Positions 1,816-59,238 are shown, counted from the first letter of the stretch. The stretch: DNA of 62,564 bases from an uncultured Muribaculaceae bacterium (GCA_964349455.1 CAYGGG010000001.1:1-62564); one strand, 5' to 3'. The notes: generated from the sequence alone by a model not told the origin. Numbers and translations are program-made.

Positions 1816-3648
<1,833 letters not shown>

Positions 3649-4107
3649 CTATTCGCTAATTTTTACCTTAGCTGGTCTTAAGACCCTTTCATTTAATAAA
3701 TATCCTTTTTGTAAAATTTCCACTACCATTCCTGGTTCAATACCATCAACTTTTTCCTTAATTAAAGCCTCATGGTAAATTGGATCAAATGGTTTATTAA
3801 TACCATCAATTTCTTTTAAATTAAAACTATATAAAGCGTTCATGAAATTGTGATAAATCATTTTATAGCCTTTCAAAAATTTAGATACCTCATCATCCAG
3901 ATTAGCATCATCCATTGCAACAGCACGCTCAAAGTCATCTAAAAACGGAAGTATTTCTTTAATTAAGTCGGCATTGGCCAAACAAACCATTTTCATAAAC
4001 TCTTCGTCTTTACGCTTGCGATAGTTAATTGCTTCTGCTTGTTGACGAATTAACTTATCCTCTAACTCGGCAATTTTTTCATTTAATTCATCTTTTTTCT
4101 TAGTCAT
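3649..4107 (-). CDS. grpE: nucleotide exchange factor GrpE
   Basis: Coiled-coil N-terminus plus a GrpE C-terminal domain (FDPxxHEA...). Lies between hrcA and dnaK and overlaps the hrcA stop by 8 nt. Confidence 0.93.
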   Translation of the reverse strand: MTKKKDELNEKIAELEDKLIRQQAEAINYRKRKDEEFMKMVCLANADLIKEILPFLDDFERAVAMDDANLDDEVSKFLKGYKMIYHNFMNALYSFNLKEIDGINKPFDPIYHEALIKEKVDGIEPGMVVEILQKGYLLNERVLRPAKVKISE

Positions 4108-5095
4108 CGTTTCCTCCTATATTTTCCTTAATATATTTCAACAAAGACAACACGCGATCATATTCCATTCTTTTTGGACCAATAATTGCAATCGTTCCTT
4201 TTTGACCACCAATCTGATAATTAGTTTTAATAATTCCAACATCATTATCAAATTCGCTCTCACTCCCAATATAAACCTTTATATCTTGATCATCAGTCTT
4301 AATCTTATTAATCAAGTCATAATCATCAAACTTTGTTAAAATTTCTCTTATTTTTTTAGTATCATTAAACTCTGGTTGAGCAAAAAATTTACTAGCGCCT
4401 TTTATTCTTATCTCTGGTTCAGTTACATCGCGAAATGCTTCATAAAAAGCCGAATATAATACTTCATGTTGTTTAATATATTTCTCAATTACTGGTTTTA
4501 TCTTAAACTCAAGCACCGAACCAACTTGATTAAGTGGTGTCCCAACAATCAAACGATTAATAATATCAACCGTTTTCTTAACCTCAGCCAAACTAATCGC
4601 TTCACTTAACAAAATATTCTTGTGCTCAACATACCCCTTATCAGTGATTAACAAAGCAACTAACTTATTTTCTGAAGTAGGTATGACCTCAACCTTAGCA
4701 ATTAAATTACTTGATGAGTCATCACCCAACACAACCGCTGTATAATTAGTCAAATCACTAACAATTTCCATGCTCTTGGTAATTACGTCATTTAAAGCAA
4801 GCGAATGATTATGAAAAATCGTTTGCAATTTTAACATGTCCTCTCCCGTTAACTCCTTTGGGCTCATAATATGATCAACATAATAACGATACCCCTTTTC
4901 ACTAGGAATTCTCCCCGAAGAAACATGCATTTTTTCAAGCATTCCTAATTCCTCTAAAAAAGCCATTTCGTTACGAATCGTTGCACTAGAACATTTTATC
5001 GCTTTGCAAATTGCATTTGATCCAATTGCTCTGGCTGATGAAATATATTCCTCAACAATCATTTTAAAAATCTTTTGTTGGCGGTTGCTTAACAT
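4100..5095 (-). CDS. hrcA: heat-inducible transcription repressor HrcA
   Basis: N-terminal winged HTH (RQQKIFKMIVEEYISSARAIGS), typical length, first gene of the dnaK operon. AAGGGAGG RBS. Confidence 0.93.
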   Translation of the reverse strand: MLSNRQQKIFKMIVEEYISSARAIGSNAICKAIKCSSATIRNEMAFLEELGMLEKMHVSSGRIPSEKGYRYYVDHIMSPKELTGEDMLKLQTIFHNHSLALNDVITKSMEIVSDLTNYTAVVLGDDSSSNLIAKVEVIPTSENKLVALLITDKGYVEHKNILLSEAISLAEVKKTVDIINRLIVGTPLNQVGSVLEFKIKPVIEKYIKQHEVLYSAFYEAFRDVTEPEIRIKGASKFFAQPEFNDTKKIREILTKFDDYDLINKIKTDDQDIKVYIGSESEFDNDVGIIKTNYQIGGQKGTIAIIGPKRMEYDRVLSLLKYIKENIGGNDD

Positions 5096-5216: not shown

Positions 5217-6533
5217 TTATCTTTCAACAATCTTAATGTTTACTTTTCTCGTCTTTGGTGTGTAGTTAACACGTACATCAGTTCCCTCAACCTGAACATC
5301 AATCTCATATTCGCCAGCTTTTAAGCCCGCTAAATCTAAGAAGGCTCGAACATCATCAATATTAATCCCTTCTAACACTGAAGCAACCCCTTGTAATCCA
5401 ACGTTCACCTTAACATCAGCTTGCGAAACCGCCTGCACCGCAAGACCGGTTTCCAAATTACGATATTCAATATTAATACCTTTGATTTCTTGTTCAACCG
5501 CTTCGCCAAGTGATATTCCGACCGTTACCGAACTAATACTCAAAGCACGAACTCCCAAAGGTGCTCGCAAATCAACCTTAAATTCGCGGTCTTCAGCAAG
5601 ATTATTAACATCAATTTCCAGATCAATAAAATTAATTGCTTCAATAACATCTTCTGTTCCAAAAATTTCAACTCGCGTATCACTTAATTCAATTGCACTA
5701 ATTGCTTTACCAAAGCCAACCTTACCAATTGGTTTAACACGAATTGCCACTTCCTTACTTGGCGACTCAACTCGCATTGAAGCATCAACCCGCTCTGGTT
5801 CAATTTCTACCTGAACAATTTGTCCATTACTATCATAAGCAACAATTGGCACCCCTTTTAAAACAACATCACCAATATCCGTGCTAGCTAAATTTTTTAA
5901 ATCAACCAACGCCTTTACCACTGCCACTTCATTTAAATCTTTTTCCGCACCCTTTACAATTACCGTATCAGCCGATACTTTTAAATTACTAATTACCAAT
6001 CGCTCTGATAACACATCTTGATTTAACACATCAACCGATAATGGTTTAATCTCAGAAACCTTTGGATAAATTACAACCGTTGCAACTGATGGATTAACAC
6101 TATGGGTAATTGATGGTAACGCTTGCTTATATTCAATACTAACCCGATGCGTTCCCGGCAAAAGCCCCGTCAAATCAATTGTCACTTTATGATTTGATGC
6201 CTGCTTTGCAAACATTAACTCTGAGCGTCTTCCAATTAACGTTAAATCAACTTTCTCTGGGATCCCCTCAATCACATAAGCCTCTTCATTATAAACAACA
6301 TCAATCGTTAAATCAGAAATAATTTCTGCCGAACTTTCGGTATAAACAATTAATTTCTGGTCAATTACAATAAAAACCAAAATTGAAATTGCAAGCGAAA
6401 TAAATATTAGCGTAGATTTCATCAACAACCAATTTTCAAAAAGTTTCGTAAAACCAGAAAACATTTTATTAACACTGTAAATTGCTTTCCCAATTGGCGT
6501 AATAATTATTTTTTCAAAAACAGATATTATCAT
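5217..6533 (-). CDS. cdaR: YbbR-domain protein CdaR (regulator of diadenylate cyclase CdaA); start uncertain
   Basis: N-terminal TM segment followed by repeated YbbR-type beta domains, alignable by eye to B. subtilis YbbR (GTHRVSIEYK...INPSVATVVI). Immediately downstream of cdaA. Candidate starts are 6551, 6545, 6533 and 6464. Confidence 0.85.
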   Translation of the reverse strand: MIISVFEKIIITPIGKAIYSVNKMFSGFTKLFENWLLMKSTLIFISLAISILVFIVIDQKLIVYTESSAEIISDLTIDVVYNEEAYVIEGIPEKVDLTLIGRRSELMFAKQASNHKVTIDLTGLLPGTHRVSIEYKQALPSITHSVNPSVATVVIYPKVSEIKPLSVDVLNQDVLSERLVISNLKVSADTVIVKGAEKDLNEVAVVKALVDLKNLASTDIGDVVLKGVPIVAYDSNGQIVQVEIEPERVDASMRVESPSKEVAIRVKPIGKVGFGKAISAIELSDTRVEIFGTEDVIEAINFIDLEIDVNNLAEDREFKVDLRAPLGVRALSISSVTVGISLGEAVEQEIKGINIEYRNLETGLAVQAVSQADVKVNVGLQGVASVLEGINIDDVRAFLDLAGLKAGEYEIDVQVEGTDVRVNYTPKTRKVNIKIVER

Positions 6534-47883: not shown

Positions 47884-49563
47884 TTACTTTTTTCGATCAA
47901 CATATTTTGTATGTAATAACTTATGTGCAATTGGACTGGCAGGATACTTTAAAAAATCTTGATAAAGACTAATAATTGCCGGATTACGATGTGATTTTCG
48001 AACCGCTGATTTCTTATCAATATTATACAAAATCGATCGTCTTATTTTTCGAACTCGTTCACTGTTGTAGGGCTGGCCACCACCACCAATACAGCCCCCT
48101 AAACAAGCCATCACTTCAACAAACGTATATTCATTTGGGTTTTCCTTAATTCTTTCAACTAACTTTTGCGCACCAATCAATGAATGAACAACAGCCACTT
48201 TAATTTTTTGATCGCCAATCACAACTTCCGCTTCCTTAAATGCTTCAGTTCCCCTTAACTCATTAAACTCCAAACTACTTAATTCCTGTCCAGTAATAAT
48301 CCCATAAGCCGTCCTTAAAGCCGCTTCCATTACGCCACCAGAATTACCAAAAATCGCCCCTGCCCCACTAGCAATTCCAAATGGATTATCAAATGCTACA
48401 CCATCAATTTGCAAATAATCAATTGCTGATTCATCAATTAACTGAATAATCTCTCTTGTTGTTAAAGCAATATCCACATCGCCTTTCATTTCTTCTCTTT
48501 GTGCTTCATGTTTCTTAGCAGTACATGGCATAGCAGACATTACTACCAATTCTTTTTTAATTTTATCAGCATAAAAACTCTTAGCCACCGCCCCAAACAT
48601 TTGCTGCGGCGATTTACAAGTTGAAAGATGCGCAATTAACTCCGGATGATACTGTTCAACATAATTAATCCATCCTGGACAACAAGAAGTTAACATTGGT
48701 AATCCCTTATTTTCTTTAATTCTTTTAACCAACTCATAACTCTCTTCAATAATCGTCAAATCAGCTGCAAAATTAGTATCAAACACTTCATCAAATCCAA
48801 TTCTTTTCAAAATAGCAACCAACTTACCAATTGGAAAATGATCATAAGAAACCCCATAATGCTCACAAATAGTCGCTCTAATTGAAGGGGCAATTTGAAT
48901 AATCTTATGCTTTGACTTATCTTCTAAAATATTTCTAACTTTCATAACTTCATTTTTTTCAGTAATTGCTCCAACTGGACAAATGGCGGCACACTGACCA
49001 CAAAAAGTACAAGCCATATCAGACAAATTGCAACCCGCTGGCACTCCTATTTTTAAATCATGACTTCGCCCATACTTTTCAATAATATGCAGCCCTTGAA
49101 CATCCTTGCAAATTTCTAAACAACGATTACACTCAATACACTTATTTAAATCTCTAAAAATTGCAACATTTTTATCATCGATTTCCTTTTTCTCTTTTAA
49201 ACCAACAAAAGAACTCTTTTTAATCCCCAACTTTTCACTCAACACAAATAACTGATCTCTTTTTTGATCACAATTACTTAAATCATGATTAGCTAACAAC
49301 AACTCAAAATTAATCTTACGCGCACTGTTAACCTTCCCGCTATCAGTAAAAACTTCAATCGCCTCCCATATTTCAGTCGAACAAGCCGTCTTTAAAATAC
49401 GACTTCCTTTTATTTCGACCAAACACAAGCGGCAATTAGCTTTATTCTTTTGATCCTCATGGTAACATAACGTTGGAATAAAAATATTATTTCTTAAACA
49501 AACATCTAAAATCGTTTCATTTTCTTCACCTAAAAATTCACGTCCATCAATTATTACTCTCAT
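47884..49563 (-). CDS. hydA: [FeFe]-hydrogenase catalytic subunit HydA
   Basis: N-terminal 2Fe-2S and 4Fe-4S Cys clusters. H-cluster motifs TSCCPGW (L1), MPCTAKKHE (L2) and EVMACLGGCIGGGGQP (L3). Confidence 0.93.
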   Translation of the reverse strand: MRVIIDGREFLGEENETILDVCLRNNIFIPTLCYHEDQKNKANCRLCLVEIKGSRILKTACSTEIWEAIEVFTDSGKVNSARKINFELLLANHDLSNCDQKRDQLFVLSEKLGIKKSSFVGLKEKKEIDDKNVAIFRDLNKCIECNRCLEICKDVQGLHIIEKYGRSHDLKIGVPAGCNLSDMACTFCGQCAAICPVGAITEKNEVMKVRNILEDKSKHKIIQIAPSIRATICEHYGVSYDHFPIGKLVAILKRIGFDEVFDTNFAADLTIIEESYELVKRIKENKGLPMLTSCCPGWINYVEQYHPELIAHLSTCKSPQQMFGAVAKSFYADKIKKELVVMSAMPCTAKKHEAQREEMKGDVDIALTTREIIQLIDESAIDYLQIDGVAFDNPFGIASGAGAIFGNSGGVMEAALRTAYGIITGQELSSLEFNELRGTEAFKEAEVVIGDQKIKVAVVHSLIGAQKLVERIKENPNEYTFVEVMACLGGCIGGGGQPYNSERVRKIRRSILYNIDKKSAVRKSHRNPAIISLYQDFLKYPASPIAHKLLHTKYVDRKK

Positions 49564-50722
49564 TAATGCCTCCTAAAAACTTATCTTCAAAAAACTCCAA
49601 CGCTGATAACAAAGTCGTTACTGAATAAAGACCCAGTCCACAAAAAGAAGAAACGCTAATCACATTAGTCAATTCTTTTAACACAATTAAATCATCCATT
49701 GACGCTTTTTTCATAATAAACTTATCCAATAAAACCAATATCTGAGTTAACCCCTCACGACAAGGCGTACACTTGCCACAAGACTCATGGTTAAAAAAAC
49801 CAATATTGTTTTTAACTAATTCTAAAATATTATCATCCGCAATAATCAAAGCCCCTGAACCAATCGAAAACCGTTTATCTTCCAATTTATCCATATTAAT
49901 ATTTATATTACTCAAATGATAAGGGATTAACATTCCCGAAGGGCCTCCTAAAATAACCGCATAAACATCTTGACAATATTGATCAAGAAAATCTTTAACT
50001 ACAATATCGTTTAACACTTCATAGACACCTGCATGATCAGTTTTACCAGACAAACTAATTAACCTTGTGCCATAAACCGGATAATCGGCTTTAAAAAGAT
50101 GGGGCATATTTGATAGCGTTTCAACATTTAACAGTAAAGTTGGCTTATCAAATAAACCACTAGTAGTTGGGAATGGCGGTTTTTGCCGCGTCTTCCCCCT
50201 GATCCCTTCTAAAGACGAAATCAAAGCGGACTCTTCACCACACAAATACGATCCAGCACCACTAAAAACAATCAGCTTTAAATCATCTAAAAAGCCTCTT
50301 ATTTTTGCTTCATTAATCGCTTTCAACAACTTCTTCTTTGCCAAATCATACTCTTCTCTAATATAAACATAAGCAACTGAAGCACCAACAATATGAGCCG
50401 CAATAATCATTCCTTCAATTAGTTGATGAGGATTATTTTCAAGCAAAAACTTGTCCTTAAAATTACCCGGTTCCCCTTCATCAGCATTACAAATTAAATA
50501 CTTAAGACCCTCTTGCTTAAAAACATCATTCATTTTCATCCAAGTTGGAAAATTTGCACCACCACGGCCATATAATTTTATTTCTTTTACTCTTTCAATT
50601 AACGCTAATCTATCTTTTTCACGAATTTCACAAAAAGTTTGATAACCACCATAAATAATATAATTATCAATCAAAGCCAAATCAACTTCACCCACATGTT
50701 TTGTTAACAACTTATGCTCCAT
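49547..50722 (-). CDS. hydB: NuoF-like flavoprotein subunit HydB (short form)
   Basis: GRGGANFPT (NADH), GAGSYLCGEESALISSLEG (FMN) and CGKCTPCREG (4Fe-4S). The start at MEHKLL (50722) is preceded by AGGAGTGG. Confidence 0.88.
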   Translation of the reverse strand: MEHKLLTKHVGEVDLALIDNYIIYGGYQTFCEIREKDRLALIERVKEIKLYGRGGANFPTWMKMNDVFKQEGLKYLICNADEGEPGNFKDKFLLENNPHQLIEGMIIAAHIVGASVAYVYIREEYDLAKKKLLKAINEAKIRGFLDDLKLIVFSGAGSYLCGEESALISSLEGIRGKTRQKPPFPTTSGLFDKPTLLLNVETLSNMPHLFKADYPVYGTRLISLSGKTDHAGVYEVLNDIVVKDFLDQYCQDVYAVILGGPSGMLIPYHLSNININMDKLEDKRFSIGSGALIIADDNILELVKNNIGFFNHESCGKCTPCREGLTQILVLLDKFIMKKASMDDLIVLKELTNVISVSSFCGLGLYSVTTLLSALEFFEDKFLGGINESNN

Positions 50723-51173
50723 TTTCGCCACTCCTATATTCATTCAAAATCTCTTTAATTTTTTCTGCAGTTAAATTATCATAAATTTTTTTATTAATTC
50801 GCATCACTGGTGCCTTATCACAACATCCCAAACAACTAACCAATTTCAAAGAAAACAAACGATCGTCAGTTGTTTCATCAACTGCAATCTTTAATTCATC
50901 TTTCAACACTTCTAACATATTAAAAGCACCATTAATATAACAAGAAGCAACCGAACATAACTGAACAACATACTTTCCTTGTGGCTTATCTGACAAGTAA
51001 CTATAAAAAGTAATTAAACTATAAATCTTACTTTTAGTAATCCCCACTTTTTTTGCAATTATTTCAATATCTGACTCACTAATATAATTAAAAGAATTCA
51101 TTTCCTGAACCTCAGTTAAAATTGGAATAATGTTTTCTTCCTTCATCTCATACTTTTTTAAAATTTCTTCCAT
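50712..51173 (-). CDS. hydC: NuoE-like 2Fe-2S thioredoxin-fold subunit HydC
   Basis: C-x4-C ... C-x3-C pattern (CSVASC...CLGCCDKAPV) and a typical size. Confidence 0.85.
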   Translation of the reverse strand: MEEILKKYEMKEENIIPILTEVQEMNSFNYISESDIEIIAKKVGITKSKIYSLITFYSYLSDKPQGKYVVQLCSVASCYINGAFNMLEVLKDELKIAVDETTDDRLFSLKLVSCLGCCDKAPVMRINKKIYDNLTAEKIKEILNEYRSGENGA

Positions 51174-51240: not shown

Positions 51241-52089
51241 ATGGAATTATGGATTGAATATGTTTTAATTTCTGCTCTTATTCTAGGCCTTTACAACATC
51301 TTTAAAAAGAAAGCCTTAGAAAAAAACAACGCAATTGAAGTCTTAATCACATTTACCATTTTATCGTTTATTTTTGTCATTCCTGAAGCAAAAAATGCCT
51401 TCCAAACCGATCTTCACTATATTTCAATTATTCTTTTAAAATCAGTAATTGTTTTTTCAAGTTGGATTATTAGTTGGAATTGCCTAAAACATATGCCCAT
51501 CAGCACCTATAGCATTTTCTATTTATCAAGACTTCTTTTTATTGCCATTTTAGGAATCATTCTCTTACAAGAAAAAATAATCTTTATCCACTTAATCGGT
51601 ATGATTCTAATTATGATAGGTTTAATTATTGCAAATTTAAATCAAAAAACAAAAACCGAAAACTTTAATACCAAATACACTTATTACCTAATTATTAGTT
51701 GCTTTATTATTTCTTTTTCAAGTGTAATCGATAAACTAGTAATGAAACACATTAATCCTGGTCAGATGCAATTTTGGTTCATGGGCTTTATGGCTGTTTT
51801 ATATATTCTCTACACCATTTTTACCAAAGCAAAATTAAACTTCAACACGATTAAAAAAAATTATTGGCTCCCAATCATTGCTATTTCAGTTATTGTTGCT
51901 AGCCGCTTTCATTTTATGGCCAATGCCGTCCCCGAAAGCAATATTTCATTAATTGCTTTTATCCGTACTCTTTCAGTTGTTATTTCTTTGCTAATTGGTG
52001 GCCTTTTATTTAAAGAAAAAAATCTTTTATTTAAATTATTTTGCTCCATTATTATCTTAATTGGAATTGCATTATTAACTTTGTATTAA
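51241..52089 (+). CDS. EamA/DMT-family transporter
   Basis: Ten predicted TM helices in a duplicated 5+5 arrangement. Confidence 0.65.
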   Translation: MELWIEYVLISALILGLYNIFKKKALEKNNAIEVLITFTILSFIFVIPEAKNAFQTDLHYISIILLKSVIVFSSWIISWNCLKHMPISTYSIFYLSRLLFIAILGIILLQEKIIFIHLIGMILIMIGLIIANLNQKTKTENFNTKYTYYLIISCFIISFSSVIDKLVMKHINPGQMQFWFMGFMAVLYILYTIFTKAKLNFNTIKKNYWLPIIAISVIVASRFHFMANAVPESNISLIAFIRTLSVVISLLIGGLLFKEKNLLFKLFCSIIILIGIALLTLY

Positions 52090-52118
52090 AAAGAAGCTAT
52101 TCTAAAAGCTTCTTTTTA
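52088..52118. terminator. bidirectional rho-independent terminator (end of the lipoyl operon)
   Basis: aagaagct-(8 nt)-agcttctt with flanking A and T runs. Confidence 0.7.
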
Positions 52119-52391
52119 GTTTAGAAATAATTTTTCAATATCCTCACTACCAAACCCGACAAGCACAATCTCATTTTTCTTAATCGTTTCGTCTAATCTT
52201 TCTTTAACCCCTTCAACTTCACCTAACATACAATTTTCTAACAAACTAATTGAAGTTTCCGGATAAACAAAAAAATCACCAAAAATATTAACAAACGTAA
52301 TCTTGTTATCAATTATCTCAATATCCAATCTTAATAACTTTCCATTAGTAACCTTGTAATCAATCTTTTTTCTCATCTTTGATTTAACCAC
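52116..52391 (-). CDS. lplB: lipoate-protein ligase C-terminal (accessory) domain as a separate polypeptide, LplB-like
   Basis: 91 aa. DYKVTNGKLLRLDIEIIDNKITFVNIFGDFFVYPE matches the LplA C-terminal domain. Overlaps the lplA end by 19 nt. Confidence 0.7.
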   Translation of the reverse strand: MVKSKMRKKIDYKVTNGKLLRLDIEIIDNKITFVNIFGDFFVYPETSISLLENCMLGEVEGVKERLDETIKKNEIVLVGFGSEDIEKLFLN

Positions 52392-53116
52392 TCACTTGTA
52401 TTATATTTCTCATCATATAATTTTCTAGCTAAATTCTTTTCTTCATCAGTTAAATTAGACTCACAAAATTCAATCTGAAACTTTTCCATAAATCCCTTTT
52501 TTAAAGCCTCAACCACTTCAGAATAAGCAACTTCTCGATTCAACTCATTTTTAATTGAAGTAACACATTCGCTTACATCATTAATCATTTTATCACGCAA
52601 CTTTTCATCAGGAACTTTTAAAATCGAAAACATCTTTGCCACATCAACATCAACTAAAACCGTTCCATGCTGTAAAACCATTTTGTTTCTCCTTGTTTGC
52701 GCACTACCAGAGATTTTTTTACCGTTAACCATAATATCATTAATCGGTTTAAATTGACAATCAATTTCAAGCTCCTTAAACCCACAAATAACGGCTCCGC
52801 ATATTTCCTCATAAGACTTTAAAATATCTTTGTCCAAATCATCCTCACTTAATAAAACCGAATAAGTAATTTCTTGATCATGAAAAACCGCCCCACCACC
52901 AGTATAACGACGAACAATATCAAATTGATATTGTTTTAATTTATCTAAATCAACTTCCTGATTCACACTTTGAAAAAACCCAATACTAATTGCTGGTGGA
53001 TACCAACTATAAAAACGTAACGTATTGACACTCTTAGAAATCAACAACGCCTCATCAATCGCCATTTGCATTGCGGCATTATCTTCACAATAACTAATTA
53101 ATCGCCATTTTTTCAC
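52373..53116 (-). CDS. lplA: lipoate-protein ligase catalytic domain (LplA, N-terminal domain only)
   Basis: RRYTGGGAVFHD and the KISGSAQ lysine motif. 247 aa with no C-terminal domain. GTG start behind AAGGAAGTG. Confidence 0.85.
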   Translation of the reverse strand: MKKWRLISYCEDNAAMQMAIDEALLISKSVNTLRFYSWYPPAISIGFFQSVNQEVDLDKLKQYQFDIVRRYTGGGAVFHDQEITYSVLLSEDDLDKDILKSYEEICGAVICGFKELEIDCQFKPINDIMVNGKKISGSAQTRRNKMVLQHGTVLVDVDVAKMFSILKVPDEKLRDKMINDVSECVTSIKNELNREVAYSEVVEALKKGFMEKFQIEFCESNLTDEEKNLARKLYDEKYNTSEWLNQR

Positions 53117-53924
53117 TAAAACACTTCCTTGCTTGATAAGAACTTCGGACTAACTTCCCTGAAATAACACAATCAAACCCAATCTCATAGCCCATTTTTT
53201 CGATCATTTTAAACTCTTCATCAGAATAATACTTCACCACCGAATATTGCTTTGCACTTGGTTTCAAATACTGCCCAATTGTTACAATATTAACACCATT
53301 ATTTTTCAAATCAATTAACGTTTTTTCAATTTGTTCGATTGTTTCACCCAAACCAACCATTAACCCTGACTTAACTATCTTTTTCATAGAAGCCTCTTTT
53401 AAAATCATCAGTGATCTTTCATAATTACCTTCTTTTCTTAACAAAGAAAACAAATCTTCAACCACTTCAATATTATGATTTAAAACATCAATCCCAGAAT
53501 CCAACACTTTTTGCAAAGCATTTAAATCACCCTTTAAATCAGAAATCAACACTTCAACTTTAATATCACTAAACTCTTTTTTAATTTTATCCACAATTAA
53601 AGCCACATAACCAGCACCACCATCATCTAAATCATCTCTTGTTACTTGTGTTAAAACAACATATTTCAAATCCAAATACTTAATTGCTTTTAAAATATTA
53701 TCTATTTCAAAATAATCAACCTCATTTGGAATGCCACTTTCAACATTACAATAAGCACAATTCCGGGTACAAATATTACCTAACAACAAAAAAGTGACCG
53801 TGCTTGCCGAAAAACACTGATAGCGATTCGGACAATCACCGGCCATACAAATAGTATTAATATTTAATTTTTTAATTTTTTCTAAAACAACCAAATACTT
53901 TTTTCGATCAACCTTATTAATCAT
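53094..53924 (-). CDS. lipA: lipoyl synthase (radical SAM)
   Basis: Auxiliary-cluster cysteines CMAGDCPNRYQC and the radical-SAM CTRNCAYC motif. Confidence 0.9.
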   Translation of the reverse strand: MINKVDRKKYLVVLEKIKKLNINTICMAGDCPNRYQCFSASTVTFLLLGNICTRNCAYCNVESGIPNEVDYFEIDNILKAIKYLDLKYVVLTQVTRDDLDDGGAGYVALIVDKIKKEFSDIKVEVLISDLKGDLNALQKVLDSGIDVLNHNIEVVEDLFSLLRKEGNYERSLMILKEASMKKIVKSGLMVGLGETIEQIEKTLIDLKNNGVNIVTIGQYLKPSAKQYSVVKYYSDEEFKMIEKMGYEIGFDCVISGKLVRSSYQARKCFSEKMAIN

Positions 53925-55185
53925 TTTGATCCTTTAAAAAATTAATTTTTTTCAAACAAATAGTAGCAGCCATTACCACCGGATCAAAAATAGAAGCCGA
54001 AGCTGGATTATAACACGTTTCCATATTAACAACATCATCCAACTGAATTTTCTTTTCAATTGCCAAAGCGATTAAATTCAAGCGCCCCGCCACTTCATGA
54101 TGACCTATAATTTGACCACCAATTATTTCTTTATCAAAATTACAAATTAACTTAACAATTATTTTTTCCTCATTATTATAATAATTTGAACGAACCGTTC
54201 CAATATACCTGCCCACAACACAATTATCAACTTCTTCTTCAATCACCCCAACTGAGCCAATATATAAATTTCCTAATTTCGTAATTGTATTATTCAAAAC
54301 ATACGAAAATTGCTTAGAATCAGATAAAAGATTGGCCGCGACTACTTTTGCCTGCCTAACCGCTGTTGTTCCAAGCTGGCTCAATACTATCTTTCTCGTA
54401 ATCAAGTGAATTGATTCAACACAATCACCACAAGCAAAAATATTTTCATCAGATGTTTGCAAAAATGAATTAACCTTTACCCCTATCCCCACTTCAAGCC
54501 CAATTTTTTTTGCCAAATCAGTTTTAGGAAGAAGACCCGTACACATAAACAAATTATCAAACTTAATTTCTTTTTCATTACAAACTAAACTATTACCACT
54601 AATTCTTTCAATTTTAGCATTAACCTCAACCTTGATATTCCCCAACTCCAAAAATCCAGCCATATCTTTATCAAGCATTTTACTTAAAATTTGCGATTTT
54701 TCTTCAAAAAGATACACCTCATGACCAAGAATTGATAAAGCATTCGCAAGTTCAGTCCCAATCATCCCACCGCCAACTACCACCGAACAATTTCCATTTT
54801 TCATATTAACATCATCAATTGTTTTCAAAGTTTGATAATCTCGACCGGCCTCGCTTCCAGTTGTCATAACCAACCGATCATAATCAATTTCTTTAGAGAC
54901 ACCATTTTCTAAATAAAAAACTTTTTTTAACTTTCGATTAACATCCATTACTTCTGAATTTAATCTTAATTCAATTTGATTTAATTGATAATCCTCCTCT
55001 TGATAAATAAAAATATCTTCCCGATTTTTTATTTCACCAGAAATCAAGTAAGGGAGCGCACAAGGAGAGTACTCCAAATATTTCGTTTTTTCAATAATAA
55101 AAATTTCAACATTTTTATTTAACTTGCGAAGTTCAAAAGCGCAAGTTGTTCCAGCACTGCCCCCACCAATAATTACAACTCGCAT
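53917..55185 (-). CDS. FAD-dependent pyridine nucleotide-disulfide oxidoreductase of the CoA-disulfide reductase / NADH oxidase class
   Basis: VVIIGGGSAGTT FAD fold, a single redox Cys in YSPCALPY, and a second dinucleotide fold VVVGGGMIGTE. No C-terminal rhodanese domain. Confidence 0.8.
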   Translation of the reverse strand: MRVVIIGGGSAGTTCAFELRKLNKNVEIFIIEKTKYLEYSPCALPYLISGEIKNREDIFIYQEEDYQLNQIELRLNSEVMDVNRKLKKVFYLENGVSKEIDYDRLVMTTGSEAGRDYQTLKTIDDVNMKNGNCSVVVGGGMIGTELANALSILGHEVYLFEEKSQILSKMLDKDMAGFLELGNIKVEVNAKIERISGNSLVCNEKEIKFDNLFMCTGLLPKTDLAKKIGLEVGIGVKVNSFLQTSDENIFACGDCVESIHLITRKIVLSQLGTTAVRQAKVVAANLLSDSKQFSYVLNNTITKLGNLYIGSVGVIEEEVDNCVVGRYIGTVRSNYYNNEEKIIVKLICNFDKEIIGGQIIGHHEVAGRLNLIALAIEKKIQLDDVVNMETCYNPASASIFDPVVMAATICLKKINFLKDQND

Positions 55186-55186
55186 T

Positions 55187-55558
55187 TTATCCCCTCGTCT
55201 TTTCTTGATAATAAATCAACGCTTCATCTTCATTCATTAAGTCATCTAATTCAGTTTTATCGCTTAATTTAATTTTTACAATCCAACTATCAAAAGGATT
55301 TCGATTAATCAAAGCGGGCTCATCAAATAACACTTGATTCGCTTCAACAACTTCACCAGTAACCGGGCTTGTTAAATGACCTGACCACTTAACCGCTTCT
55401 AAAGTAACATAAACTTCATCTTTTTTAATCATATTTCCAACTTTGGGCAGCATTACAAAAACAAACTCTTGAACTTGCTTTGCCGCTTCTTTTGTCACAC
55501 CTAAAGTAGCTACGTCGCCTTCAATCTTCACCCACGAATAATCTTTATTAAATTTCAT
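55187..55558 (-). CDS. gcvH: glycine-cleavage-type H protein (lipoyl carrier)
   Basis: Lipoyl-lysine context VTLEAVKWSGHLTSPVTGEVVEAN. 123 aa. Confidence 0.88.
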   Translation of the reverse strand: MKFNKDYSWVKIEGDVATLGVTKEAAKQVQEFVFVMLPKVGNMIKKDEVYVTLEAVKWSGHLTSPVTGEVVEANQVLFDEPALINRNPFDSWIVKIKLSDKTELDDLMNEDEALIYYQEKTRG

Positions 55559-55565
55559 AAATACC

Positions 55566-56816
55566 TCATTTCACTTTATAAAATTTTGCAATTATTAACG
55601 AAATAACAATTGCACCACCAAAAACAACAATCGTTCCGCCAATATCATTTAATAAATTTGGGTCATATAATAATACCCCAGCCATACTCAACATAATCAT
55701 ACCACCAATTAGCTTTAATAAACGGCCATGCTTTTCTTCAAATTTTGAAACCTTTAAAGTATAAACCACAATAAAAAATATAATTAATTCATCAATAATA
55801 TAAACTAATAAATATAGCACAAATAAAAAGATAAAAAATGATTTTTCAATTTGGTGAGTAGCAATCATATTTGACCAAATTAAAGGGAACCCAGCCGTAC
55901 AAGGAAGTTCAACTAAAGTAATGCCAAGCGCTAGCGTGGCTGACCCAAGAATCAAAGTTTTTACATTATTTTCAGGCCTCATTAAATTTCTAACTTTGGC
56001 AAATATTTTAGGTTTATATGAATCAGAAATTGTTAAAGAAATTCCTTTCTTATACCAAAAGAAATCTTTGATATTTATCAATGCAAACACTATCGCTATC
56101 GTTGCCACAATTATTCTAATCCAAAGCAAATAACTTACATACGTAAAAATATTAATCATTCCTAAAATAAAGAAACCATAAACTGCACCCGCAACAGTAA
56201 GATAAGTCAGCCCAACTAATAAAATCTTTTTACGATCACCAGTTAAAACAACAACCCCAAGTAAAAACATCAATACCCACAAAGAACATGGGTTAAACCC
56301 ATCAACAAACGCAATTAAAACCGTTGACAACACAAGCGGCATTCCAGACACATTAAACTCTTTTCCAAAAATTTTAATCACACTATCATCAAGCACTTTT
56401 TCATCATTCACATCCGGTTCCTCAACCTCAGTCCCCGAAACAACCGAATATGCCTTATCGTTACAAAAACCTCTTTGGCACTCTTCAATTTTATCTTCCA
56501 TTTCAACACTCATTGCCTCTGAAAAGCCAAGCCAACTTTTTTCACCAATAAACGTTGCCGGTACTCCTTGCGGCAAAATATTATAAGCATTAGCTACCTC
56601 TTCAAATAATTTTGCATTACTTTTATTATTATAAACCTCAAAATAATGAATCTCAACATCAGAATAATCTTTCGCCCATTTCTCTAGATAGGGCTTTTGA
56701 CTCGCACAATGTGGACACCCATCACCATAAAAAAAGTATACATTTACTTTTTTTTGAGCTTCAACACTAGGTATAAATAAAAACAACAAAACAAACAACA
56801 ACAATAATTTCTTCAA
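55566..56816 (-). CDS. exported thioredoxin-like domain (CPHC) fused to a CcdA/DsbD-type thiol-disulfide transmembrane transporter
   Basis: Signal peptide MKKLLLLFVLLFLFIPSVEA, a Trx motif YGDGCPHC, then 6+ TM helices with GFNPC and LPCTAGFP cysteines typical of the DsbD_2/CcdA family. TTG start behind GAGGAGG. Confidence 0.8.
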   Translation of the reverse strand: MKKLLLLFVLLFLFIPSVEAQKKVNVYFFYGDGCPHCASQKPYLEKWAKDYSDVEIHYFEVYNNKSNAKLFEEVANAYNILPQGVPATFIGEKSWLGFSEAMSVEMEDKIEECQRGFCNDKAYSVVSGTEVEEPDVNDEKVLDDSVIKIFGKEFNVSGMPLVLSTVLIAFVDGFNPCSLWVLMFLLGVVVLTGDRKKILLVGLTYLTVAGAVYGFFILGMINIFTYVSYLLWIRIIVATIAIVFALINIKDFFWYKKGISLTISDSYKPKIFAKVRNLMRPENNVKTLILGSATLALGITLVELPCTAGFPLIWSNMIATHQIEKSFFIFLFVLYLLVYIIDELIIFFIVVYTLKVSKFEEKHGRLLKLIGGMIMLSMAGVLLYDPNLLNDIGGTIVVFGGAIVISLIIAKFYKVK

Positions 56817-56855
56817 CTAAATTTCCTCCTCAAATTAACACCCTTATCTATCATA

Positions 56856-56883
56856 ATTATACTCTATTATCAAGAAAAGTCAA
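56856..56883 (-). promoter_or_regulatory. sigma-70-type promoter of the trx-ccdA/gcvH/lipA operon
   Basis: Minus-sense TTGACT (56878-56883), 16-nt spacer, TATAAT (56856-56861). Confidence 0.5.
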
Positions 56884-57032
56884 ACAAACTTTTTTTGTTT
56901 TTATATTTATCCTAACATTAATAAAATGTATTTAAAACTAAATTATGAACTTGTTTTCACGAACAATAAGCAAATTTTACAAAAATACATTTAAGCAATT
57001 AGGATGAAAAATGAAGAAAAAAAGTAATTTAA

Positions 57033-58191: not shown

Positions 58192-59238
58192 TTAAACATT
58201 AATCTTTTTATAATAATCAGATATCTTTTCAACAACTATCTCTAATCTATCCGACTTAATTATCATATCATAATCATACTTTTTCTGCGATTTTAAGTAC
58301 AACACATCATAATAATCCATAACCATATATTTAATAAAATCATTAAAATTAGATTCATTTAATAATTTCATCATTTTTCTAGTCCATTCATCGCCCATAT
58401 TTAACTTAAAATATTTGTTATTTTCAATAATTTTTTTCACCTTATCAACCTCAATATCTTCTGGACGATAAACATTTGACAAAATCTCAATTCTTTTTTC
58501 AAGCGAAACATCCAACAATATATGTGGTGAAATAAGAATTTTTTTATACAAAACATTTGGCAATGACACACTCCCTATTTTTCTACTTTCACTTTCAATA
58601 AAAACATACCTTTTATTATCAACAACAAAATCCTTAAGTAAAAAAAACAACTTATCTTCAAATTTTTTTTGGCTATTAACTTTTAGTCCAATCTCACCAA
58701 AAATAGATCCCCTATGATTAGCACAATCTTCTAAATCAATCACTGGTAATTTTTTAGCAAGTTCATTTAAAACAATTGTTTTTCCACTTCCAGTATTTCC
58801 TGATATTACCAAAAAATTTAATTTCTCAATATAATTATTAATATTATTTAATAAATAATTTCGGTATTCTTTATACCCTCCAACTAATTTATAACAATTA
58901 ACATTCATTAATTTCAATACATCAACAACCGAAGAACTACGGCTACCCCCCCGTGCACAAAAAACCACTATCTCTTTACTAGGATTCATCCTAATCAATT
59001 TTTTTATTTCTTTATAAATAATCGGCAACTGCTCTAGACCATACTTAAAACCCGTTTCATAAGCTAAATCTTTATTTTGCTTATACAAAGACCCGACAAT
59101 ATGACGCGCTTCATTATCGAGAATTGACAAGTTAATAGCATCTCTTATCGTTCCTTCATTATATTCCTTTTCTGATCGAACATCAATCAATATATATTTA
59201 TCAATACAATCAATCAAATCCCCAATTCTAATGTCCAA
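58192..59238 (-). CDS. selU: tRNA 2-selenouridine synthase (SelU/MnmH)
   Basis: N-terminal rhodanese domain with the catalytic loop FCARGGSRS, ARHIVGSLYKQ, and a P-loop SGNTGSGKT. Confidence 0.85.
   Translation of the reverse strand: MDIRIGDLIDCIDKYILIDVRSEKEYNEGTIRDAINLSILDNEARHIVGSLYKQNKDLAYETGFKYGLEQLPIIYKEIKKLIRMNPSKEIVVFCARGGSRSSSVVDVLKLMNVNCYKLVGGYKEYRNYLLNNINNYIEKLNFLVISGNTGSGKTIVLNELAKKLPVIDLEDCANHRGSIFGEIGLKVNSQKKFEDKLFFLLKDFVVDNKRYVFIESESRKIGSVSLPNVLYKKILISPHILLDVSLEKRIEILSNVYRPEDIEVDKVKKIIENNKYFKLNMGDEWTRKMMKLLNESNFNDFIKYMVMDYYDVLYLKSQKKYDYDMIIKSDRLEIVVEKISDYYKKINV

Follow-up and report, generated by a model that had tools for sequence, protein, structure and literature searches.

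We analysed a stretch of 62,564 nucleotides of DNA from an uncultured Muribaculaceae bacterium (GCA_964349455.1 CAYGGG010000001.1:1-62564, hereafter the window), in which six minus-strand genes join an exported thioredoxin (Trx)-like domain, fused to a membrane domain (TrxMem), to a glycine cleavage H-protein (GcvH), a flavoprotein and a set of lipoylation genes. The recurrence of this cassette in very distant small-genome bacteria and archaea points to a so far undescribed route by which reducing power could cross the membrane. Counted from the first letter of the window, its genes and the two domains of TrxMem are:

55566-56816, minus strand: TrxMem, exported thioredoxin-like domain fused to a seven-helix membrane domain (416 amino acids, aa; signal peptide, CPHC, C113/C118, C177 and C306)
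56442-56750, minus strand: thioredoxin/glutaredoxin (Trx/Grx)-fold domain of TrxMem (residues ~23-125; CPHC at 34-37, GVP cis-Pro loop)
55569-56354, minus strand: membrane domain of TrxMem (residues ~155-416; hydrophobic, 260 residues long, C177 in transmembrane helix 1, TM1, and C306 in TM4)
55187-55558, minus strand: GcvH of the KW subfamily (123 aa; lipoyl lysine K57 in LEAVKWSGH, codon 55388-55390)
53917-55185, minus strand: single-cysteine FAD/NAD(P)H disulfide-reductase-family flavoprotein of the CoADR/Npsr/Nox group (422 aa; Cys42 in YSPCALPY, codon 55060-55062)
53094-53924, minus strand: lipoyl synthase LipA (276 aa; NF004019, 317.2 bits against a cutoff of 203)
52373-53116, minus strand: catalytic subunit of lipoate/octanoate-protein ligase, LplA (247 aa; PF21948, LplA-B_cat, 4.2e-51, above gathering)
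52116-52391, minus strand (start perhaps the ATG at 52376): ligase accessory subunit LplB (91 aa; NF053749, 7.3e-13)

The junctions between the six open reading frames (ORFs) are gaps of 7 and 1 nucleotides followed by overlaps of 8, 23 and 19 nucleotides, exactly the spacing that an initial annotation of this DNA had given for six co-directional genes. In public gene calls LplB starts at the ATG at 52376 (86 aa), and its overlap with LplA is then 4 nucleotides, not 19. The motifs named in that annotation (CPHC, GFNPC, LPCTAGFP, SPCALPY and the lipoyl lysine) can all be read in the translated ORFs.

Firstly, we assessed the conservation of the neighbourhood in two directions. The forward search consisted of a genome scan with a TrxMem alignment (80 loci) and of tblastn with the six window proteins; the reciprocal search started from the GcvH subfamily and scanned metagenomes (45 loci), and all sources pooled gave 49 non-identical loci. 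In the forward search, gcvH was found immediately downstream of TrxMem in the closest Bacilli and Mollicutes metagenome-assembled genomes (MAGs; L007, L008, L009 and L013), and directly after it in loci from Undinarchaeota (L010), Woesearchaeota (L083) and Saccharibacteria (L065). The pair was also present in MAGs labelled Gammaproteobacteria or Pseudomonadales (L023, L059 and L080), and wherever the contig suffices the flavoprotein, LipA, LplA and LplB genes follow gcvH in the same order. In the pooled set, TrxMem stands directly upstream of KW-gcvH, on the same strand, in 34 of the 35 non-identical loci having at least 1.3 kb of upstream sequence, and 7 of the 14 loci with a truncated upstream region begin inside the TrxMem gene. 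Twenty-one loci have at least 5 kb downstream: LplA is found in 20 of them, the flavoprotein in 19, LipA in 17, LplB in 16 and an extra exported Trx paralogue in 11. The flavoprotein accompanies the Trx-membrane gene and gcvH in most but not all of these loci, some cassettes having a DUF169 gene instead. Cassettes are carried by long contigs, among them an archaeal contig of 307 kb and a Moranbacteria contig of 1.3 Mb (JAXHLG010000002.1), and their hosts are candidate phyla radiation (CPR) bacteria, DPANN archaea and Bacilli/Mollicutes-like MAGs. A tree built from the membrane domain groups the gcvH-linked TrxMem proteins in one clade, except that of L023, which stands separately near the root. 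The initial annotation had left it to relatives to distinguish synteny from chance adjacency; judged by gene order in bacteria and archaea, which is conserved in both search directions, chance does not account for the association of TrxMem with GcvH, the flavoprotein and the lipoylation genes.

Secondly, the H-protein departs from the canonical family. GcvH matches PF01597 at 7.8e-34, and in an alignment with H-proteins of solved structure K57 falls on their lipoyl-lysine, which bears out the intact lipoyl-lysine motif reported initially. In all close homologues, however, this motif reads E-A-(V/I)-K-W-S-G-(H/Q) in place of the E-S-V-K-A-A-S of ordinary H-proteins, and the K-W-S-G signature is invariant across the subfamily. 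Against the NCBIfam equivalogs, GcvH scores below the cutoff for TIGR00527 (93.4 versus 115.85) and is borderline for NF002270 (117.2 versus 117). An exhaustive profile search revealed a sharp score gap after about 12 50%-identity clusters with the K-W motif, the canonical H-proteins lying beyond the gap. By these sequence measures, GcvH of the cassette is a member of a dedicated, distinct subfamily. No GCV_T, GDC-P, 2-oxoacid_dh (E2) or E3 gene was found among the called genes of the window or in the inspected parts of the 82-kb metagenomic contig that includes it, in agreement with the earlier statement that the window lacks gcvT, gcvP, lpdA and 2-oxoacid dehydrogenase E2 genes. Outside the window, the profile search also returned P0281, a protein of 1391 aa with three tandem GcvH-like domains devoid of the lipoyl lysine and fused to an apparent FAD-linked oxidase and to cysteine-rich Fe-S/CCG-type modules (judged by eye).

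Thirdly, TrxMem has the cysteines expected of a membrane thiol-disulfide relay. In its AlphaFold (AF2) model (mean pLDDT 77.8), a Trx fold precedes seven helices, of which TM1 and TM4 are interrupted exactly at C177 and C306. As in DsbD/CcdA proteins, there are thus two conserved cysteines, one in TM1 and one in TM4, each in a Pro-Cys context. In 20 diverse members of the family, C34 and C37 (CPHC), C113 and C118 (Cx4C), C177 (FNPCSLW) and C306 (ELPCTAGFP) are invariant, and the charged loops are strongly conserved. Loops that are K/R-rich (residues 193-196, 250-285 and 353-368, as well as the C-terminus) and loops free of charge follow each other in turn, a pattern which predicts that the Trx domain lies outside and the K/R-rich loops in the cytoplasm. 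Family matches of the Trx domain are weak throughout (PF00085, 8e-4), and Foldseek with the full-length model matches thioredoxins through this domain alone. Homologues of the protein number more than 3000, and many of them come from Patescibacteria, Woesearchaeota and Nanobdellota; a second Trx/Grx domain is common. The Cx4C pair C113/C118 (window 56463-56480) closes the exported Trx domain and also occurs in stand-alone exported Trx paralogues (for example at 6046-6483 of the Woesearchaeota locus L083); it could be either a structural disulfide or an additional relay step.

The flavoprotein has the domains Pyr_redox_2 (5e-48), Pyr_redox and Pyr_redox_dim. Its Cys42 (YSxCxLPY) is invariant in 23 of 23 cassette-linked homologues, which have no second conserved cysteine but share an acidic residue after the second Rossmann strand. 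These features suggest single-cysteine chemistry of the CoADR type and the use of NADH. Scores for the CoADR equivalogs TIGR03385 and NF007123 are far below the cutoffs (260.8 bits versus 578.8 and 210.7 versus 458); the initial assignment to single-cysteine reductases of the CoADR/NADH-oxidase class therefore holds at the level of domains and cysteine, without the equivalogs. The nearest solved relatives (6pfz, 3cgb, 4fx9, 3ntd and 8a56) comprise NoxA-3, CoADRs and persulfide reductases. The clade itself is populated by CPR, DPANN and Bacilli MAGs, and its closest homologue from a named genus, Thermococcus, is ~38% identical and has no adjacent gcvH. Alignment to Lpd models covers residues 134-391 only, the C-terminal two thirds, and the CxxxxC redox disulfide is missing; if the flavoprotein reduces a lipoyl group, it would do so as an analogue of Lpd, not as a member of that family.

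The three lipoylation genes are those named initially, each with a profile match. LipA has the motifs CX4CX5C, CX3CX2C and RSSY (present as CMAGDCPNRYQC, CTRNCAYC and RSSY). LplA scores 207 bits against NF053750, under the cutoff, and LplB is below the cutoffs of both of its profiles (NF053749, 48.5 bits versus 65; PF10437, 20.8 versus 24). The LplA and LplB profiles fall on separate adjacent genes, an adjacency that is kept in relatives, and no LipB, LipM or LipL gene is present in the cassette. Split LplA/LplB with LipA is a recognised route, in which free octanoate or lipoate is ligated and sulfur is then inserted (PMC10332631). The initial annotation had seen lipoate synthesis plus lipoate salvage here. 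We rejected these as parallel pathways, since Lpl and LipA form a known single route from free octanoate, and the genes are better read as one lipoyl assembly line by which the cassette serves its own carrier.

Fourthly, variants of the cassette point to possible further clients of the carrier. The products of the additional Trx genes are exported, either signal-anchored or of the lipoprotein type, and have CPxC and, like TrxMem, the Cx4C pair. In eight distinct loci (nine, with L118 and L119 identical), a gene for an AhpD-like protein of the carboxymuconolactone-decarboxylase family (CMD, PF02627) with a conserved CxxCxxxH lies between KW-gcvH and the flavoprotein gene:

L099, 2437-2754: AhpD-like gene
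L107, 1343-1669: AhpD-like gene
L118, 9948-10286: AhpD-like gene
L121, 591-905: AhpD-like gene
L128, 2670-2888: AhpD-like gene
L132, 4157-4486: AhpD-like gene
L134, 3467-3772: AhpD-like gene
L135, 1253-1564: AhpD-like gene

The lone KW-GcvH locus without TrxMem upstream is one of these (L118), and comprises GcvH, the AhpD-like protein and the flavoprotein. In Mycobacterium tuberculosis, a dihydrolipoyl protein together with Lpd reduces AhpD. The presence of AhpD-like genes in the cassettes thus argues that lipoyl-GcvH and the flavoprotein act as a general NADH-driven dithiol reductant. Another frequent member is DUF169 (PF02596), a protein with several conserved cysteines (L087, 8409-9188; L139, 10846-11604; also in L023, L088-L090, L093-L097, L106, L110 and L120), which may be an alternative redox partner. 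The cassettes labelled Gammaproteobacteria (L059) or Pseudomonadales (L023), together with L080, are full ones despite the Proteobacteria labels of their contigs, and their flanking genes look CPR-like, for example one for a repeat-rich surface protein of 1324 aa, which suggests mis-binning or horizontal transfer.

Taken together, we favour, at slightly better than even, a self-contained reductive cassette in which electrons would pass from NADH to the single-cysteine flavoprotein, lipoyl-GcvH, the membrane cysteine pair and finally the exported CPHC thioredoxin. K57 of GcvH would receive free octanoate or lipoate through LplA and LplB; in the case of octanoate, LipA would add the sulfurs. The flavoprotein would then draw on NADH to reduce the lipoyl disulfide, Cys42 and the lipoyl group forming a mixed disulfide like that of CoADR-type enzymes with CoA. 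The dihydrolipoyl arm would in turn reduce the C177/C306 pair, buried in TM1 and TM4, from which electrons would reach the CPHC domain of the same polypeptide, possibly via C113/C118, and in relatives the extra exported Trx paralogues as well. The exported domain would reduce or isomerise disulfides, or repair oxidised residues, on cell-surface proteins, and in some relatives the same carrier would also serve the cytoplasmic AhpD-like CxxC protein. The components, catalytic motifs, topology, conserved linkage and GcvH subfamily are shown by the analyses above, and we infer each electron-transfer step and its direction. The reductive direction is suggested by the AhpD-like clients and by standard potentials: NADH lies at about -320 mV, lipoamide at about -290 mV and exported Trx-like proteins at less negative values, so that flow would be downhill in the reductive sense. 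The relay put forward initially is strengthened in the functional link of its components, through synteny, the GcvH subfamily and the AhpD-like clients, and weakened in its CcdA label.

Several results weigh against this reading, and some of them concern the membrane domain, which the initial annotation had called CcdA/DsbD-type. The family tested was that of Pfam PF02683 and PF13386, of the LysE-type clan. Pfam gave no match to the membrane domain even at E = 10, NCBIfam assigned it to no family, and a Pfam scan of 10 members of the TrxMem family returned one DsbD_2 match at E = 0.087 and one SfLAP match at 0.014. A PDB sequence search with the membrane domain gave zero matches; Foldseek with its model against PDB gave nothing below E = 1, and CcdA was absent among the 50 matches listed. 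With hhalign, the comparison to E. coli DsbD-beta alone was negative (probability 0.1%). Against a three-sequence alignment of DsbD-beta and two canonical CcdA genes found in the fetched loci, the domain was co-linear over 210 columns with both cysteines matched (P = 9e-4) and scored 19.7, compared with 3.7 when the alignment was reversed, no more than 9.9 over 30 column shuffles, and 3.1 with a membrane protein that is unrelated; the hhalign probability was just 5-9%. The cysteines and a weak full-length similarity thus speak for the label, and the Pfam, NCBIfam, PDB sequence and Foldseek searches against it: by sequence, the domain would work like CcdA and is possibly a distant relative, and the CcdA/DsbD-type label is an interpretation rather than something observed. 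In the cassette there is no Trx or TrxR gene, and the linked cytoplasmic partner is GcvH. In an Anaerolineae MAG, a canonical CcdA with 34% identity to E. coli DsbD-beta lies directly upstream of TrxMem (L044, 2741-3373, with TrxMem at 3439-4743), and in a Chloroflexia MAG a second CcdA lies 1.2 kb downstream of a TrxMem homologue (L085, 12376-12954); CcdA and TrxMem may cooperate, as non-redundant proteins, instead of replacing each other.

Other points on the same side concern partners and direction. About 65 TrxMem homologues, from Chloroflexota, Bipolaricaulota and other phyla, stand elsewhere in the tree and have no gcvH nearby, so TrxMem would be able to work with another partner; a look for conserved neighbours around those of Chloroflexota revealed none apart from sporadic genes for ArsR-type regulators, small Thioredoxin_3 proteins and permeases. 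Four cassettes (L089, L090, L094 and L110) have DUF169 and no flavoprotein. Residue 257 (window 56046-56048), in the conserved cytoplasmic loop WYKKG, is the sole clear specificity position between the two groups: 94% of the TrxMem proteins linked to gcvH have Lys there, and 81% of the unlinked ones have Glu. We rejected a docking surface argued from specificity positions, one strong site being too little. The top PDB sequence matches of the exported domain are DsbA proteins (3hz8, 3.4e-5), which would fit an oxidising role, and its CPHC and the GVP before the cis-proline are DsbA-like. Finally, the function proposed is deduced from comparative genomics and is in this sense purely sequence-based.

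The resemblance to DsbA leads to the main rival explanation, which runs the chain in reverse as quinone-independent disulfide formation: exported cysteines would be oxidised by the CPHC domain, and electrons would pass through the membrane pair to oxidised lipoyl-GcvH, from which the flavoprotein, as a dihydrolipoyl dehydrogenase or oxidase, would deliver them to NAD+ or O2. CPR, DPANN and fermentative Firmicutes, the hosts of the cassette, generally lack quinones, so that DsbB or VKOR would be inoperable in them. Many flavoprotein homologues are named 'NADH oxidase (H2O2-forming)' by the Joint Genome Institute (JGI), and VKOR-Trx fusions likewise join a Trx domain to a redox module in the membrane. 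However, lipoamide at its potential would be a poor oxidant for a DsbA-type domain, which makes this direction thermodynamically awkward; DsbA has a helical insert that is absent from the Trx domain in the AF2 model, the AhpD-like proteins of sister cassettes are components of reductive pathways, and the organism of the window, with its [FeFe] hydrogenase, looks anaerobic. We regard the reverse direction as unlikely, attractive as it would be for organisms free of quinones. A wider proposal, that in quinone-free small-genome lineages (CPR, DPANN and related Firmicutes) a horizontally mobile cassette makes lipoyl-GcvH a dedicated transmembrane thiol-disulfide currency, with an oxidative machine for cell-surface disulfide bonds independent of DsbB and VKOR as its boldest form, is speculative and given correspondingly little weight.

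A second rival confines the redox chemistry to the cytoplasm: GcvH and the flavoprotein would form an antioxidant couple analogous to that of Lpd, lipoyl protein, AhpD and peroxiredoxin, and TrxMem would be co-regulated within an oxidative-stress regulon and reduced by ordinary thioredoxin, not by GcvH. AhpD-like genes in eight distinct cassettes, the locus that has GcvH, the AhpD-like protein and the flavoprotein without TrxMem, and the Chloroflexota TrxMem homologues that do without gcvH would all agree with it, and GcvH-L of Staphylococcus aureus is an oxidative-stress factor (PMC12440151). Yet the TrxMem-gcvH adjacency is far tighter than that of gcvH with AhpD, the pair is retained in minimal cassettes without an AhpD-like gene, such as that of the window, and the gene order, which starts with TrxMem and leaves gaps only a few nucleotides long, is kept across domains of life, which leaves this explanation doubtful.

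Less probable is a housekeeping lipoylation operon, in which GcvH would be an ordinary H-protein or relay, the flavoprotein a CoADR, an NADH oxidase or a donor to LipA, and the adjacency of TrxMem meaningless. GcvH does serve as a lipoyl relay in Bacillus. LipT-type flavoproteins have been proposed to serve lipoyl synthases (PMC10332631). On the other hand, the synteny holds across CPR, DPANN and Firmicutes, the subfamily has KWSG in place of the canonical VKAAS, the cassettes contain no LipL or LipM amidotransferase/octanoyltransferase, and GCV_T, GDC-P and E2 were not found on the inspected parts of the 82-kb contig. Hardly credible is an uptake device that would import lipoate or another disulfide or dithiol by thiol-disulfide exchange and feed LplAB: the hosts must indeed scavenge octanoate or lipoate, and the cassettes have ligase genes (LplA in 20 of 21), but most TrxMem homologues are without any lipoylation gene, LipA implies octanoate, not lipoate, as the usual precursor, and TrxMem matches no transporter family.

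We also analysed the signals that flank the cassette, for which one promoter (56856-56883) and one terminator (52088-52118) had been reported initially:

56856-56883, minus strand: sigma-70-like promoter candidate TTGACT-16-TATAAT (11 of 12 consensus positions, ~40 nucleotides 5' of the start codon)
56825-56830, minus strand: ribosome-binding site AGGAGG (8 nucleotides 5' of the TTG start, read from the sequence)
52087-52118, minus strand: terminator-like hairpin (12 bp, -13.8 kcal/mol, z = -4.2; 0 of 200 shuffles fold as well)

The promoter site has the joint top score in a 7-kb promoter scan, but the scan as a whole barely exceeds shuffles (39 sites versus 33.4 expected); since this AT-rich region yields near-equal numbers of sites when shuffled, the candidate is weak taken alone, and we consider the promoter plausible, unproven. 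A 10-nucleotide inverted repeat at 56871-56897 (90% complementary, 7-nucleotide spacer) overlaps its -35 hexamer, and could be an operator, the terminator of an upstream glycosyltransferase gene or a chance occurrence in AT-rich DNA. The terminator, unreported by a pattern scan, was confirmed as a hairpin by folding: it sits in the 26-nucleotide space between convergent genes, has an A-run on one side and a U-run on the other, and its 5' arm begins at the LplB stop codon.

Directly downstream of the cassette, at 47884-51173, lies a HydABC-like set (2Fe-2S thioredoxin-like NuoE, a NuoF-like protein and the large subunit of an [FeFe] hydrogenase), after which come flavodoxin-like and isochorismatase-family genes. 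Two genes upstream, at 58192-59238, a protein joins rhodanese to AAA_SelU (tRNA 2-selenouridine synthase-like), which hints at selenium use. Measured in 2-kb windows, the GC skew ranges from -0.2 to -0.48 across the window (1-62564), which is very strong and uniform; the G+C content is ~31% and nearly all genes are on the minus strand. The 82-kb contig encodes MurT/GatD, WhiA, RNase J, FtsY/YlxM and HrcA-GrpE-DnaK-DnaJ, and the organism looks fermentative and Bacilli/Mollicutes-like.

If the reductive relay is true, lipoic acid would have a third kind of job, besides acyl/aminomethyl carriage and sulfur oxidation, and a protein-bound dithiol would power redox chemistry outside the cell. To our knowledge, CPR and DPANN generally lack 2-oxoacid dehydrogenases; the relay would explain why minimal-genome fermenters or symbionts without these enzymes have a costly lipoyl-assembly pathway. 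It would also define a large unannotated family of membrane proteins, with more than 3000 members. The cassette is compact, with six to eight genes, and directly testable in vitro.

In the literature searched, we found no paper tying GcvH or lipoyl proteins to CcdA/DsbD-like membrane relays, and the system is undescribed there; the initial annotation had likewise known of no CcdA system fed by GcvH. The closest known systems each share part of the cassette. The DsbD/CcdA pathways (E. coli DsbD, Bacillus CcdA-ResA/StoA and pneumococcal CcdA-Etrx-MsrAB2) have Pro-adjacent cysteines in TM1 and TM4 and a thioredoxin-fold acceptor at the outer face, fused to the membrane part in DsbD as in TrxMem. 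Unlike them, TrxMem has seven helices, large conserved cytoplasmic loops and an extra invariant Cx4C pair, and it is genetically linked, on the cytoplasmic side, to a lipoylated GcvH that comes with a flavoprotein of its own, not to thioredoxin and thioredoxin reductase. The Lpd-DlaT(SucB)-AhpD-AhpC relay of M. tuberculosis similarly combines an NADH-driven flavoprotein, a lipoylated protein and a CxxC protein. In the cassette, by contrast, the carrier is a free-standing GcvH instead of an E2 subunit, a single cysteine of the CoADR type stands in the flavoprotein where Lpd has CxxxxC, and the chief linked acceptor is membrane-bound and has an exported domain. The sHdr-LbpA system with sLpl(AB)-LipS1/S2-LipT also uses a GcvH-like carrier outside glycine cleavage, with its own ligase, lipoyl synthase and flavoprotein (PMC6067878, PMC10332631), whereas the cassette has canonical LipA instead of LipS1/S2, split LplA and LplB, no Hdr-like complex or sulfur transferases and, as partner, the exported thioredoxin-membrane fusion. 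The GcvH-L/LplA2/SirTM/macrodomain operon of Staphylococcus and Streptococcus provides an extra H-protein with a dedicated ligase and a link to redox stress (PMC4518038, PMC12440151); the cassette differs by having no sirtuin or macrodomain and another GcvH motif, and adds LipA, the flavoprotein and the membrane component. With the group of CoADR, NADH-dependent persulfide reductase and NADH oxidase, finally, the flavoprotein shares its fold and the single redox cysteine in CxLPY, but it scores below the family cutoffs, forms its own clade and is fixed beside gcvH.

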